From Clostridia bacterium (lineage in GTDB: Bacteria > Bacillota > Clostridia > Oscillospirales > Acutalibacteraceae), in assembly GCA_017622555.1 (NCBI GenBank), contig JAGAQV010000017.1, forward strand, positions 3,169-67,168: a DNA stretch of 64,000 nt, written 5' to 3'. Both the position numbers and the translations under genes were made by a program. The notes beneath the pieces are model-generated. The model had not been told where the DNA came from and did no database searches. It saw nothing but the letters and a program-made list of their open reading frames with translations. This document shows, one piece after another, positions 3,624-57,700 of this stretch (its first letter is position 1; each line of letters opens with the position of its first letter).

Positions 3624-4387
3624 GTAGCTTGGAAGCTTTAATTTTTGACACACACGCCCATTATGAAGACCCCGTTTTTGAGGATAATTTTGATGAGCTT
3701 ATAAACGAAATGAAGAATTCCGGTGTGGGCGGTATTATAACCTGTGGTTGTGATAAACAAAGTAGCTTAAAGGCATTATCCCTTGCTGAAAGGTATGAAA
3801 TTGTTTACGCTGCTGTTGGTATTCACCCCGGTAATATTGACAACGGCACGACAATCGCCGAAATTCGCGAATTACTTTCACACCCAAAATGTGTTGCCGT
3901 TGGCGAAATTGGGCTTGATTATTACTGGCGGCAAGACAACAAGTCAGAACAAAAAGAAATTTTCAAAGCACAGCTTCAGCTTGCCAATGAATTGGGTTTG
4001 CCTGTTTTAGTGCACGACCGTGATGCCCACGCTGACACACTTGAAATTTTAAAGGAATATAAACCAAAGGGTGTTGTACACGCCTTTTCAGGCAGTGTGG
4101 AAATGGCACGTGAAATTGCAAAATTAGGGCTTTATTTAGGCGTTGGCGGTGTTTTAACCTTTAAAAACGCAAGGGCGTTACCCGCCGTTGTAAGCGATAC
4201 CCCAATTGAAAAGCTTTTGCTTGAAACTGATGCCCCATATTTAGCCCCCGTACCCCATAGGGGTGAAACCAATAATTCGGCAATGATACATTATGTTGCT
4301 GAAAAAATGGCTGAAATTAAAGAAATTTCAAAAAATGAAGTTTTGATTCAGACCTTTAAAAACGCAAAAAAATTGTTTAATATTTAG
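3620..4387 (+). CDS. tatD: TatD-family metal-dependent hydrolase (DNase)
   Basis: IFDTHAHY N-terminus, GEIGLDYYW, LVHDRDAH and LLETDAPYL motifs. The start overlaps the metG stop (GTG 3620; TTG 3629 also possible). metS-yabD type synteny. Confidence 0.9.
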   Translation: MSSLEALIFDTHAHYEDPVFEDNFDELINEMKNSGVGGIITCGCDKQSSLKALSLAERYEIVYAAVGIHPGNIDNGTTIAEIRELLSHPKCVAVGEIGLDYYWRQDNKSEQKEIFKAQLQLANELGLPVLVHDRDAHADTLEILKEYKPKGVVHAFSGSVEMAREIAKLGLYLGVGGVLTFKNARALPAVVSDTPIEKLLLETDAPYLAPVPHRGETNNSAMIHYVAEKMAEIKEISKNEVLIQTFKNAKKLFNI

Positions 4388-26225: not shown

Positions 26226-26242
26226 ACTCCCACCTCAAAGGT

Positions 26243-26271
26243 AGTATAGCATAAAAACGGTGGTAGGACAA
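26243..26271 (-). promoter_or_regulatory. Sigma-A-type promoter for the HAD gene
   Basis: On the minus strand: TTGTCC, 17 nt, TGcTATACT. Confidence 0.5.
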
Positions 26272-26280
26272 GGGGATTTA

Positions 26281-26455
26281 AGTGAAGCGTCGGCAAAGCC
26301 GACGTGATGCATTTGCTACGCAAACGTGATGTTATGTGCTAACGCACAAAGTGATGTAATGTGTTCCTTCCCACGCGCCGAAGGCGTGCATCACGAGCAA
26401 AGCCTGCATCACGCACGAAGTGTGCATCACGTTCCGCACACGCGGAACACATCGT
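26281..26455. repeat. Hairpin-spaced short-repeat array 1: GTGATG x3 (direct) then TGCATCACG x3 (inverted)
   Basis: GTGATG at 26304, 26326 and 26351. TGCATCAC at 26387, 26405 and 26423, with a degenerate 4th copy (acacatcg). Spacer mini-hairpins: cgtcggc/gccgacg, tttgc/gcaaa, tgtgc/gcaca, cgcgcc/ggcgtg, gcac/gtgc, gttccgc/gcggaac. Confidence 0.85.
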
Positions 26456-26460
26456 TTTCA

Positions 26461-26499
26461 AAACAAAAAAGCACTTCTTTCGAAGTGCTTTTTTGTTTT
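26461..26499. terminator. Bidirectional intrinsic terminator
   Basis: A6, stem gcacttc/gaagtgc, T6. Downstream of the GH63-like gene on the minus strand. Confidence 0.8.
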
Positions 26500-26632
26500 G
26501 GGTGTTTTGAACTTAATGACACGAATAAACTGTGCCTGAAAGCTGGGGATTTTTCTATTTGCTCGGCGGTATAATAATAACCGCCAACCCTTGAAAAAGC
26601 TTGATTATTATTTTCATCCTTTTAAATTATAA

Positions 26633-28165
26633 TTAAATTATAAACTTGCTTTCACCTTCGGGTATATCATACGCCTTGCCGTTTACTTCAAGGGTATACG
26701 ACTTATTGGTCACAACGTGACACTCGTTGCCGTCTGCTACAATATCGGTAACAACTTCGCCAAAACGAAGGTTTTTAATGCCAATTTTACCTTCTACGCC
26801 CACAGGTTTTGCCCATTTTATCTTGTTTTTAAAGGCATCAATAGTATGGAAGCCCAACACAAACTCAATGTACACCGCAATGGGACCCAATGCCGACCAA
26901 CCGCAAAAATCGGGGCGCACAAGCCTGCCATCATCTTCTACGCAGGTGGCAGGCTCACACTTTTCGGGAGAATAGCACTCCCAGATAGTATGCGGAGAAA
27001 AATCGGTATAAGTTTTATACATGTGCTCAAGAAGCTTAAACGAAAGGGTGCGCGCATCGCTGTAAAACCCGTAATTTCGAAGCCCCTTAAGGGTAGCGTA
27101 TGCCGTCGGCAACCAAACCGAGCCCCGCCAGTACTTTCCGTTAACGTTATAGTCGTTATCGTTACGTGACAGCGAAACAAACGGCACCTTTCCGCCAAAG
27201 GTTTTGGGGTTGTGTAGCTCGGAAAGTAACGCTTCGGCCTGCTCTTTTGTAGCCACCTCTGCCGTCAGCGCCCAAAACGACGCTATAGTTGCCACCTTGC
27301 AAAACTCGTGAGTGTTGCAGTCAATATCGTAATAAAAACCGTCTTCTTCACACCAATAAAGACGGTTTATAATATCCGCTTTTTTGTTGAATTTTTCGTT
27401 CCATACCGCTTGATTTTGGGTATCGCCCACTATTGCAAAAAGCTTCGCTATCATTTTTGCCGCCATCGCCTGCTGCAGGATGGCATCCACCCACAATAAA
27501 TCAGGGTTATTAGGGCGCGGTTCATAAGCGTGCTCTCCCCTTCTTCCGCGGGGGGTATTATCCATACCTGAGCGACCGCCCTCCCATTTATAACCGTATT
27601 CTTCGGCTATAAGGCAGGTCGGCGCCATAACTCCGGAAATAGTGGTAGGCGTCTTTTGGCTCTCAAACCACTCATAATGCTTTTGCAAAAACTTCTCTTT
27701 ATATAGCAGGTTTTTAATATACTCTTTATCGCCTTTCACTAAAGCGTTTTCGTACTCTGCCCAAGCAAAAAGCGGTGGGTTATCGGCAATGTGTATTTGC
27801 ACTTCAAACGGCTCGCCTACTACACTGCCCGTCCATTCGGGCTCGTTTTCGGTAGGGATTATAATGCCTAATTTTTTCCCGCCGTAAAGTTTTTCATAAA
27901 AGTTTCGAAGCGACTCCACTCCCGGGAAAACGTCACGCGCAAATTTGCAAAAAAGCGACATAAAGCTTGTGTCCCAAATCCAAATTTGGGTTTCGCAAAA
28001 GGCCTCATCCATATAGGGACTTTGGGGCATACCGTCAACTGTCTTAATATGGTCAAAAGCCAACTCCCAAGCCTTATTATAAAATTCGTTATACTGCGGC
28101 ATTTCTTCGCAAACGGGTTGGGGTATATATTCCCGCCAGTTTGCCGCACCAAATTCGTTAGGCAT
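26633..28165 (-). CDS. (alpha/alpha)6-barrel glycoside hydrolase, GH63/MGH1/trehalase-like
   Basis: ~510 aa with IWIWDTSF (WDS/T.F type) and C-terminal FCGWSALGP segments typical of GH63/GH37-like enzymes. ATG 28165 follows an AAGGAAG RBS. Confidence 0.6.
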   Translation of the reverse strand: MPNEFGAANWREYIPQPVCEEMPQYNEFYNKAWELAFDHIKTVDGMPQSPYMDEAFCETQIWIWDTSFMSLFCKFARDVFPGVESLRNFYEKLYGGKKLGIIIPTENEPEWTGSVVGEPFEVQIHIADNPPLFAWAEYENALVKGDKEYIKNLLYKEKFLQKHYEWFESQKTPTTISGVMAPTCLIAEEYGYKWEGGRSGMDNTPRGRRGEHAYEPRPNNPDLLWVDAILQQAMAAKMIAKLFAIVGDTQNQAVWNEKFNKKADIINRLYWCEEDGFYYDIDCNTHEFCKVATIASFWALTAEVATKEQAEALLSELHNPKTFGGKVPFVSLSRNDNDYNVNGKYWRGSVWLPTAYATLKGLRNYGFYSDARTLSFKLLEHMYKTYTDFSPHTIWECYSPEKCEPATCVEDDGRLVRPDFCGWSALGPIAVYIEFVLGFHTIDAFKNKIKWAKPVGVEGKIGIKNLRFGEVVTDIVADGNECHVVTNKSYTLEVNGKAYDIPEGESKFII

Positions 28166-28186
28166 AATTTCCACTTCCTTGTGATG

Positions 28187-28215
28187 ATTTTACTATAAAA
28201 CTTAAATAAAGTCAA
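28187..28215 (-). promoter_or_regulatory. Sigma-A-type promoter for the GH63-like gene
   Basis: On the minus strand: TTGACT, 17 nt, TAAAAT. A further copy of the array-2 motif (plus strand tgtgatgatttta, 28179-28191) overlaps the -10/+1 region. Confidence 0.5.
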
Positions 28216-28382
28216 CGGCTCGCCGTTGTATATCATCAATTCCGCAGGAATTGCATATCATCAAAACTTTAGTTTTGTATATCATCAAGCCGACAGATAT
28301 ACACACTTCGTGTGATGATATACGCCTTCGGCAATGATATACACGACTGCGTCGTGGTGATATACCATTGCTTTCGCAATGG
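28212..28382. repeat. Hairpin-spaced short-repeat array 2: G(T/C)ATATCATCA x3 (direct) then (TGA)TGATATAC x3-4 (inverted)
   Basis: Direct copies at 28228, 28253 and 28277. Inverted copies at 28296 (gatatac), 28313, 28335 and 28358. Six private spacer hairpins: 28213-28228, 28238-28252, 28262-28277, 28324-28332, 28342-28356 and 28365-28382. Central hairpin at 28302-28314. Confidence 0.9.
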
Positions 28383-28417
28383 AAAAAAACACTCGTTCAA
28401 GAGAACGAGTGTTTTTT
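28383..28417. terminator. Bidirectional intrinsic terminator (terminates tRNA-Leu on the minus strand)
   Basis: A7, stem cactcgttc/gaacgagtg, T6. Confidence 0.8.
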
Positions 28418-28503
28418 GGTGCCGATGACCGGACTTGAACCGGTACGATATTGCTACCGAGGGATTTTAAGTCCCTTGTGTCTGCCTATTCCACCACATC
28501 GGC
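28417..28503 (-). tRNA. tRNA-Leu (anticodon UAA), type II with long variable arm, CCA encoded
   Basis: The reverse complement folds by hand. Acceptor stem GCCGATG/CATCGGC, anticodon stem AGGGA/TCCCT with loop CTTAAAA, long variable arm, T-arm CCGGTTCAAGTCCGG, 3' ACCA. Confidence 0.9.
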
Positions 28504-28565: not shown

Positions 28566-28934
28566 TTATTTGCAACTGCAGCAGCTTTTAAAAAGCTTAT
28601 CAACATCAAGCCGTTTTTCATCACTGTTTTTAATAAAATTCAAGGTGTTAAAAGCGGCAGCAGGTGCAGTGTCAGTATAGAATGCATCCACCACTCCCCT
28701 TTCACAGCCAACGTGCAAGGTGCTTCTAAGCACACCGTCAAGCAGCGATAAATCGCTTAACGGTTCAATAATATGAACAGTTAACACAGTGTCAATATCA
28801 AAAAGGCAGTAACCCAAAATTCCCTCTTTATCGGTTGCTAAAAGCAAGTTTGAATACTCGCTAAACGGCACACCCGCTTCGTTATAATATTTTTCGGTTA
28901 ACTGCCTGTCACTTGTTACTTTTAAGGTTATCAT
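28566..28934 (-). CDS. Hypothetical 122-aa protein with C-terminal CCxC tail
   Basis: The ORF is translationally coupled to rluB (TAAATG). No family is recognised. It ends ...LDVDKLFKSCCSCK. Confidence 0.5.
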   Translation of the reverse strand: MITLKVTSDRQLTEKYYNEAGVPFSEYSNLLLATDKEGILGYCLFDIDTVLTVHIIEPLSDLSLLDGVLRSTLHVGCERGVVDAFYTDTAPAAAFNTLNFIKNSDEKRLDVDKLFKSCCSCK

Positions 28935-57536: not shown

Positions 57537-57567
57537 AAAAGTACAAGAAAGAAAAAATACAACCTTT

Positions 57568-57700
57568 GTCCTTTTGCCTGAGAGATTAACGGTTAAAAAC
57601 CGCCTTGCCCCTTCGGCACCTGATTTAACAGAATTCTCCAAAGTGCTATCAGTTCACAGTCGAATACCTTCTGCAAACCTCACATAGCTTATTCAGTTCC
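57568..57700 (-). ncRNA. Glycine riboswitch (single clearly conserved aptamer at 57568-57639 plus upstream leader)
   Basis: The minus strand reads GGAGAAUUCUGUUAAAUCAGGUGCCGAAGGGGCAAGGCGGUUUUUAACCGUUAAUCUCUCAGGCAAAAGGAC. This carries the GGAGA, CCGAAGGGGCAA and CUCAGGCAAAAGGAC cores. Confidence 0.85.

Follow-up and report, generated by a model that had tools for sequence, protein, structure and literature searches.

A double-armed hairpin array between a tRNA-Leu terminator and a glycoside hydrolase promoter in a Clostridia genome, and its apparent kinship with the Gut-1 motif

The stretch analysed here, hereafter the window, comprises 64,000 nucleotides from a Clostridia bacterium of the family Acutalibacteraceae (GenBank assembly GCA_017622555.1, contig JAGAQV010000017.1, positions 3,169 to 67,168), and window coordinates are used throughout. 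Upstream of a GH63/MGH1-like glycoside hydrolase gene (26633-28165, minus strand) lies an element termed Array 2, in which three copies of the 11-nt motif GYATATCATCA are followed by three to four reverse-complement copies, with a different mini-hairpin in each spacer and a bidirectional intrinsic terminator at the end. Conserved intergenic mosaics of this kind form a multi-copy family in gut Oscillospirales (Acutalibacteraceae and Oscillospiraceae-like Clostridia), of which Array 2 is a single representative. The terminator, located by inverted-repeat search at 28384-28417, consists of an A-tract, a 15-bp stem and a T-tract; its 15-nt arms, AAAAAACACTCGTTC and GAACGAGTGTTTTTT, are 100% complementary around a 4-nt loop and begin and end with six-A and six-T runs, in agreement with the definition of an intrinsic terminator, an assignment that covers this flanking part (28384-28417) only and not the array itself. 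A tRNA search placed the 3' end of tRNA-Leu(taa) (28417-28503, minus strand) directly against it. On the opposite side, the glycoside hydrolase gene is preceded by a promoter-like site, TTGACT-17-TAAAAT (28187-28215, minus strand, promoter-pattern search), whose -35 box is formed by the end of the outermost hairpin plus GACT; other arrays of the family have a degenerate last motif, TTGATT, at the place of this box. Both flanks, as well as the general anatomy of alternating motifs and hairpins, an inverted half and a terminator, had been described correctly in a first-pass annotation made from the sequence alone. Relatives of the GH63-like protein were found in gut metagenome-assembled genomes (MAGs) of Acutalibacteraceae, Oscillospiraceae and other Clostridia, with a top identity of 71% in a search of genome contigs; the window's own species was not among the matches of this search.

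Along the plus strand, starting at the promoter, the array opens with hairpin H1 (CAACGG-CTCG-CCGTTG, 28213-28228), motif A1 (GTATATCATCA, 28228-28238), hairpin H2 (AATTCC-GCA-GGAATT, 28238-28252, a stem kept across the family), motif A2 (GCATATCATCA, 28253-28263), the AT-rich hairpin H3 (AAAAC-TTTA-GTTTT, 28263-28276) and motif A3 (GTATATCATCA, 28277-28287). The centre is formed by the segment CAAGCCGACAG (28286-28296, plus strand), the family counterpart of which pairs with half of the anchor hairpin P0, and by a degenerate fourth motif copy, GATATAC (28296-28302, plus strand), recognised by repeat search and family alignment. The right arm continues with hairpin CACAC-TTC-GTGTG (28302-28314), motif A3' (TGATGATATAC, 28313-28323), hairpin GCC-TTC-GGC (28324-28332), the imperfect motif A2' (AATGATATAC, 28333-28342, repeat search), hairpin ACGAC-TGC-GTCGT (28343-28355) and motif A1' (TGGTGATATAC, one mismatch, 28355-28365), and it closes with P0 (CCATTGC-TTTC-GCAATGG, 28365-28382), which is recognised by its family-conserved sequence and its fixed distance from the terminator. 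The motifs, all given on the plus strand, were located by motif search except where stated, and H1, H3 and the three hairpins of the right arm from the sequence together with a DNA fold. The seven spacer palindromes, P0 included, all differ from one another. Matches to the motif with at most one mismatch number seven in the window against 1.19 expected, a count reached in 0 of 100 shuffles. From start to start, the motifs of one arm lie 24-25 nt apart, and those of the right arm 17-23 nt.

Several details of the earlier description could be refined. The perfect 11-nt complementarity it had reported between A3 and A3' was borne out, and A1 proved equally complementary to 28313-28323. The stems, given as uniformly GC-rich and 5-7 bp long, in fact measure 3-7 bp, and that at 28263-28276 is AT-rich; the loops, given as 3-4 nt, are mostly 3 nt once the closing pair is counted. 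An additional motif copy had been placed at 28179-28191, where a 9-nt match (TGTGATGAT) is indeed present, but within the 5' untranslated region of the downstream gene and outside the family plan. Both strands of the array were predicted to fold far more stably than shuffled controls, with RNA z-scores of -9.0 and -9.2, and folding with DNA parameters gave z = -7.0. The minimum-energy structure predicted with DNA parameters is a nested rod of four-way junctions and exactly matches the rod of stacked junctions that the first-pass annotation had proposed.

When metagenomes were scanned for the inner pair of motifs, at least 120 loci matched; their identifiable sources are mostly human-gut contigs, together with other metagenome contigs (numbers with the prefix L denote loci from this and the other scans). 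Terminator-anchored parsing of the listed loci yielded 57 distinct arrays of the Array 2 type. In the orientation that runs from terminator through array to downstream gene (T-first, equal to the minus strand of the window), these arrays share a common plan. The bidirectional terminator is followed by TATCC and by P0, either CATTGC-GAAA-GCAATG or CAAGCC-GACA-GGCTTG; the first arm holds three units of GTATATCATCA plus hairpin, then a degenerate GTATC and an 11-nt segment, X'; and the second arm holds three or four units of TGATGATATAC plus hairpin, then GATTT, after which the -35 box of the next gene follows. Unit counts of three in the first arm and three to four in the second are found in 45 of the 57 arrays, and the first motif begins 19-21 nt past the terminator in 52 of them. 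A tRNA gene directly precedes the terminator in at least 26 of the 57, with 13 tRNA types represented, and in 19 of 50 arrays a sense promoter, TTGATT-17-TATAAT, occurs at a constant offset, the terminal TTGATT serving as its -35 box. The downstream genes vary. One of them recurs 55-65 nt downstream of the array (L288, L294, L309, L312, L341, L357, L407 and others, many of them tRNA-linked) and encodes a 113-aa protein (MPKNYLLIYSEQLATDIELLCQ...ANIREANYGQSKADMLSK), which is presumed here to resemble the four-helix-bundle, 23S rRNA intervening-sequence protein family, a putative assignment.

The same terminator stems recur with different arrays, the terminator sequence of the window being identical in L353 and L371. 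Furthermore, two independent short-read assemblies of the same strain, L001 (equal to window positions 26497-28255) and L002 (26500-28251), match the window with 0 mismatches, and both break at the terminator of a sister element, Array 1, and inside Array 2. Because identical terminators accompany different arrays and assemblies break within them, the terminator, P0, motif and promoter parts behave as multi-copy modules; in practical terms, such arrays break short-read assemblies. The GH63-like relative L004 holds three arrays within 1.9 kb. The first follows a 5S rRNA gene, tRNA-Asn and a terminator; the second (950-1200) is a homologue of Array 2 with identical motifs, some hairpins replaced and a different gene context; the third is a mini-array with GTGAAAT that is found in L003 too. 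In L256 and L257 (340-400), an Array 2 homologue and its terminator stand beside a 41-nt 3' fragment of a tRNA at a predicted prophage edge, which suggests phage integration into the tRNA preceding the array. No array match was obtained by blastn against plasmid and phage collections.

Comparison of the 57 arrays has shown that the spacer hairpins are selected to pair irrespective of their sequence. The arrays contain 194 distinct spacer hairpins, with about 980 Watson-Crick pairs and stems of 3 to 11 bp, and outside P0 and one stem (AATTCC/GGAATT) the hairpin sequences are not conserved. Hairpin h3, for instance, has 96.4% of its cells paired, while its pair columns contain CG:26/GC:12/AU:3 and GC:16/CG:15/AU:10, and the H1 homologue in L256 carries compensatory changes (CACGGC...GCCGTG). 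That the hairpins would covary around fixed motifs had been predicted beforehand, and the prediction held in the relatives (L004 950-1200, L256 and the family columns). Covariation was likewise shown for P0 and for a long-range pairing, X:X'. In P0, 99.7% of cells are paired and two covarying types occur. In 42 of 46 distinct arrays, X' is complementary over 11 nt to the 5' half and loop of P0 (X), with four covarying types; X:X' pairs in 95.4% of cells as compared with 33-43% when the partner is slid, and one column of the P0 loop covaries with X' (AU:29, CG:7), which a local hairpin cannot account for. P0 and X:X' are mutually exclusive, and therefore represent two alternative closures of the element.

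The copy in the window departs from this scheme. Between 28286 and 28382 it combines a P0 of the CATTGC type with a centre segment, CAAGCCGACAG, of the CAAGCC type, and since the two are of different types X:X' cannot form. It is one of two hybrid arrays, the other being L361, among the four of 46 that lack X:X' pairing. An array following the same tRNA-Leu(taa) in L381, which is probably the orthologue of Array 2, has a matched P0/X' pair. The hybrid state of the window copy suggests that arrays have recombined with each other, an assembly chimera being a further possibility, and this copy looks like a slightly defective, recombinant-looking member of its family.

A hairpin-density scan of the window located a sister element of the same plan, Array 1 (26283-26500), which is built on another motif (GTGATGC/GCATCAC). 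Its motif copies start at 26304, 26326 and 26351 (GTGATG) and at 26389, 26407 and 26425 (CATCAC); P0 occupies 26431-26448, X (26444-26452) is complementary to an intact X' (26359-26367), and a bidirectional terminator lies at 26459-26500. Array 1 is situated about 1.8 kb from Array 2, between the glycoside hydrolase gene and the next gene, so that the two arrays bracket the GH63-like gene. The full plan, including P0 and X', is shared by several motif dialects, namely GTGATGC (Array 1), RTGATAT (one array of L004, L004-a, and L008), GTGAAATC, ATGTAATC and AACATCA (L352, L393), and several dialects were found together on single contigs, as in L352 (4680-4840 and 5205-5340) and L393 (4170-4330 and 9400-9560), which carry arrays of the GTGAAATC, ATGTAATC/GATTACAT and AACATCA/TGATGTT dialects. 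The general unit is a motif of 10-11 nt plus a hairpin of arbitrary sequence, and although the motif differs among dialects, one arm of an array always complements the other.

Two further sequence modules were observed near such arrays. A conserved element of about 35 nt, TTGAACTTAATGACACGAATAAACTGTGCCTGAAA, is placed between the stop codon and the array terminator where no tRNA precedes the terminator (window 26507-26541, L003 around 3905-3945, L004 around 1665-1712, and beside the first array of L316). A recurring promoter module, ...CACCGCTTTTATGCTATAAT...AAGGCGGTGAnnnnATG, is common to unrelated downstream genes (window 26226-26275 on the minus strand, L004 400-450 and 1195-1245, L337, L353, L371 and L393); in it, an inverted repeat of 6-7 nt (CACCGC/GCGGTG) pairs the promoter spacer with the Shine-Dalgarno region.

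No described bacterial element with this grammar had been known to the first-pass annotation. That statement has to be withdrawn, because Gut-1 (Rfam RF01706) also has a conserved linker between variable hairpins: as published, it is a single 77-nt arm in which four copies of a GUGAWAU linker separate and flank three hairpins of variable, covarying sequence (Weinberg et al., 2010, Genome Biol 11:R31, PMC2864571). Like Array 2, it thus repeats a short conserved linker around variable, covarying hairpins. An orphan Rfam motif since 2010, known only from the human gut, Gut-1 was mentioned in no other paper in a literature search for its name. At the Rfam gathering threshold, a scan of the array region returned only the tRNA. 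A permissive scan matched window positions 28294-28368 (plus strand) to Gut-1 with 26.3 bits (E = 0.003-0.005), short of the cut-off of 50, and Array 1 (26363-26434, minus strand) with 18.6 bits against the same cut-off. In the relatives, L004 227-302 scored 64.4 bits, above the cut-off, and L008 81-152 scored 49.5 bits, just below it. Matches to snoRNA, MicC and PyrR models were attributed to chance (E > 0.05), being driven by UGAUGA or by the terminator.

In such arrays the Gut-1 model matches both arms, on opposite strands. Moreover, in the flank-annotated Gut-1 alignment of Weinberg et al., some seeds run on into an inverted arm, terminators and tRNA genes adjoin, and the reverse-complement motif occurs 85 times in the alignment file as compared with 75 forward occurrences. 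Because the model matches both arms, the seeds continue inverted and the reverse complement is abundant, Gut-1 as catalogued is one arm of a double array. The arrays that score on Gut-1 (L004, L008) resemble those of the window in their succession of terminator, anchor hairpin, arm, centre complement, inverted arm and promoter. The right arm of Array 2 itself (28296-28365) reads GATATAC, hairpin, GATGATATAC, hairpin, AATGATATAC, hairpin, GGTGATATAC, and therewith has the three variable hairpins and four linker copies of Gut-1, with a linker that differs from GUGAWAU. It also shares the gut occurrence of Gut-1, which was reported only from gut bacteria and metagenomes, as the relatives of the GH63-like protein come from gut MAGs and the array homologues from human-gut and other metagenome contigs. 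Array 2 differs from Gut-1 in its motif, GTATATCATCA/TGATGATATAC, and it is inside-out with respect to Gut-1-type arrays, in that its AUCA-type arm with G..A loops adjoins the terminator. Judged by these sequence features, the Array 2 family and Gut-1 belong to one superfamily, in which the window copy is a divergent member, turned inside-out and locally recombinant. Several features of the family's architecture go beyond the published description of Gut-1, namely its two arms, the switch formed by P0 and X', its dialects, and its coupling to terminator, tRNA and promoter; the inverted second arm, P0/X' and the terminator and promoter coupling do not appear in the main text or the supplementary Gut-1 note of that paper (PMC2864571).

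The interpretation preferred here, to which nearly an even chance is given, is that the array is a strand-symmetric folded boundary element between two transcription units. The element would act as a folded single strand, in which local folding of the private hairpins would bring the motif copies next to each other regardless of spacer length. Zipping of the two arms could in turn produce a rod, or a branched cruciform, of stacked four-way junctions, and P0/X' would provide an alternative closure of the terminator-proximal arm. It might work as DNA, or in transcripts that enter from either side, and candidate roles are those of a topological or read-through insulator or of a substrate for a lineage-specific single-strand-binding enzyme. 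Strand symmetry is proposed because pairing is almost purely Watson-Crick, because the loops are mirrored, and because the array is positioned between terminator and promoter without a fixed antisense promoter. With regard to pairing, the non-Watson-Crick internal pairs of the hairpins are balanced, at 4 G-T versus 5 A-C in about 980 pairs. The loops of the terminator-proximal arm, in T-first orientation, include 41 of G..A type (GTA, GAA, GCA, GNNA) versus 1 of T..C type, and those of the other arm 0 versus 54, and whichever arm is considered, the strand bearing GTATATCATCA always has loops of the c(GNA)g type. DNA mini-hairpins with a GNA triloop and a closing C-G pair are a classic example of very high stability. 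The stems of the arms differ as well, being short and GC-rich in one and 5-6 bp with AA...TT in the other.

A broader and distinctly doubtful extension is that Gut-1 and its relatives are halves of unrecognised strand-symmetric, self-zipping boundary elements. Each would comprise a terminator, an anchor hairpin, two complementary arms built of dialect motifs and private hairpins, and a promoter, and would fold as a branched rod or cruciform with P0/X' as the alternative closure; placed where tRNA and other genes of gut Clostridia end, it might influence DNA topology or the polymerases that approach from the two sides. The window and its relatives present the Gut-1 motif as one arm of a larger, strictly organised element with several dialects, which in abundant gut Clostridia is coupled to terminators, to the ends of tRNA genes and to promoters. 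Its architecture makes testable predictions, namely long-range P0:X' pairing, zipping of the arms, strand symmetry and a boundary position. Should these arrays prove to be a novel type of boundary between transcription units, or a novel structured nucleic acid, the result would matter for how genes are organised in a major part of the gut microbiota.

Several observations weigh against a boundary element of this kind. Minimum-energy folds favour P0 plus A:A' pairing, and X:X' is not predicted. The sole evidence for putative arm-to-arm A:A' pairing is complementarity across the dialects, and in the type-2 family single motif variants (GTATCTCATCA, GCATATCATCA) are uncompensated in the nested partner. 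Extrusion of a branched cruciform from a duplex with a non-palindromic centre of 25-35 bp is kinetically doubtful. The short GC-rich stems may not tolerate wobbles, which weakens the argument from missing G-U pairs; no mechanistic reason for the mirrored loop types has been worked out; and a terminator that is integral to the module, at a fixed distance from it, gives the plus strand the look of a small RNA (sRNA) gene. Gut-1, in addition, was classed as a likely RNA (PMC2864571).

The main rival is a structured non-coding RNA of about 200-240 nt, transcribed from the window's plus strand antisense to the flanking genes and ending at the shared bidirectional terminator, which is regarded as possible, though on balance unlikely. 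Such an RNA would start near the start codon or promoter of the downstream gene, and its UGAUGAUAUAC linkers or its zipped rod would be the functional surface, for example of a protein or RNA sponge with a cis-acting lid. In its favour, the order array, P0, terminator is that of an sRNA gene, and the terminator is an integral part of the module whose distance from the array is fixed; Gut-1 is listed among sRNA candidates, and the fold z-score is -9. If only one strand were made into RNA, an excess of G-U pairs would be expected on that strand, together with loops of a favourable type in either arm. The wobble counts are small and contradictory, and over hairpins, P0 and X:X' no net strand signal emerged: the hairpins show no G-U excess, P0 has 5 wobble pairs on the T-first strand, opposite to that of the supposed RNA, versus 0, and X:X' has 7 on the other strand versus 3, with X:X' deviations being G-U on the plus strand in 7 arrays versus 1 on the other. 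On either strand, half of the hairpins have U..C loops, the complements of the G..A loops. As for a start site, a promoter-like sequence, TTGCCG-16-CATAAT, occurs on the plus strand at 28141-28168, and four arrays that carry the CACCGC promoter module, or a variant, have a mirrored promoter-like site whose end lies 35 nt upstream of the array, reading GTGACA-16-AATTAT in L292 and TTCATA-18-TATTAT in the other three; among 50 arrays, however, antisense promoter-like sites were found in only 14, where they are scattered, and are absent from 36, and no consistently placed antisense promoter was found. The orientation of Gut-1 given by Weinberg et al. is, moreover, the opposite one, with the terminator upstream. 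The plus-strand sRNA raised by the first-pass annotation accordingly keeps its place among the candidates, but the pairing, the loops and the promoters lend it no specific support.

Two other explanations that had been raised at the outset fare less well. A non-autonomous mobile or recombining repeat, similar to REP/BIME/REPIN elements or to miniature inverted-repeat transposable elements (MITEs) and spread by a lineage-specific enzyme acting on single-stranded DNA hairpins, for instance one resembling an HUH/Y1 transposase, would make the array grammar a substrate requirement of the enzyme and not a host function. Terminator, P0, motif and promoter modules do indeed reappear in differing combinations from locus to locus, hybrid copies exist (the window and L361), the Array 2 homologue of L004 lies in a different gene context, several dialects share a contig as in REPIN families, and assemblies break within arrays; the exclusively Watson-Crick pairing fits as well, as do the c(GNA)g triloops, which are characteristic of stable mini-hairpins in DNA. 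Nevertheless, the arrays show no conservation of the hairpins, the recognised part of REP elements and of IS200/IS605 ends, target-site duplications were not observed (no search for a transposase gene was made), and plasmid and phage collections gave no matches. Copies in the same context, such as tRNA-Tyr followed by the 113-aa gene, persist across metagenomes with diverged hairpins, and because of this divergence between copies that share tRNA and downstream gene, long residence is indicated, not recent movement. Mobility thus retains the recurrence of modules and the recombinant look of the window copy in its favour, yet it is improbable.

Even less credence, very little indeed, is given to a double-stranded operator or iteron array for a sequence-specific protein that regulates the adjacent promoter. 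The direct and inverted 11-bp motif copies immediately upstream of the promoter, the last degenerate copy of which supplies the -35 box, would suit such a role, and GTGATATCAC arrays in viral contigs resemble true operators. Operators or iterons are marked by regular helical spacing and free spacers, whereas the spacing here is irregular (24-25 versus 17-23 nt, with family spacer hairpins of 3 to 11 bp), selection keeps the spacers palindromic whatever their sequence, a property that a protein binding duplex DNA does not require, the differing motifs in neighbouring arrays of one genome would require different proteins, and the long-range X:X' covariation includes loop bases. Further candidates were rejected: inversion between the arms, as in a shufflon, by their different hairpin populations; kissing between complementary loops by the mismatched frequencies of loop identities in the two arms; DNA curvature or helical phasing by the irregular spacing; and cryptic promoters inside the units by the lack of a -10 box at the right distance.

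Comparison with known repeat systems sets the family apart from each of them. The REP/BIME/REPIN elements of proteobacteria are extragenic, multi-copy mosaics of hairpins and linkers at gene ends, with inverted units, several families per genome and long vertical persistence. The array family resembles them as an extragenic multi-copy mosaic with inverted units and coexisting families. In REP elements, however, the palindrome sequence is conserved and shared by all copies, whereas in the arrays it is the linker that is conserved, each hairpin being private, and REPs lie mostly inside transcripts, upstream of terminators, whereas the arrays lie downstream of the terminator; the earlier statement that Array 2 is not a recognisable REP/BIME is therefore correct in the strict sense. 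Integron attC sites and other recombination sites of the folded single-strand type are found between small gene cassettes and are believed to function as folded single strands; with them the arrays share imperfect inverted repeats whose arms match each other and not a universal consensus. Unlike attC sites, which have R''-L''/L'-R' boxes with extrahelical bases and are associated with an IntI integrase, the arrays show no R or L boxes evident by eye (no integrase search was made), the genes between arrays each have their own promoter and terminator, and each arm contains 3-4 repeats of a unit that includes a branch hairpin. CRISPR arrays likewise alternate a constant with variable elements. 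In Array 2 the constant element is a non-palindromic 11-nt linker and not a 24-48-nt repeat, the variable elements are palindromes of 9-20 nt, half of the array is inverted, and no cas genes were noted among the flanking genes examined, in line with the exclusion of CRISPR by the first-pass annotation.

In viral contigs, two three-copy direct-repeat patterns gave more than 100 loci each, which were dismissed as tandem repeats or phage GTGATATCAC operators without hairpin spacers, with the exception of L256, where the match lies in a host flank beside a split tRNA. The Gut-1 centre pattern GTGATATTGCCN{3,6}GGCAGTT was found at 29 loci in viral contigs. Four viral contigs (L157, L183, L198 and L222) carry clusters of four to six GTGATATCA(C/T) sites, for example at L157 1694-1800, directly after the reverse-complement start (CAT) of an apparent minus-strand open reading frame; these clusters are phage-operator-like and unrelated to the hairpin arrays. 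Within the window, an open reading frame of 122 aa upstream of tRNA-Leu (28566-28934, minus strand) had no Pfam match, and a glycine riboswitch aptamer was identified at 57556-57651 (minus strand) with 61 bits at the Rfam gathering threshold.

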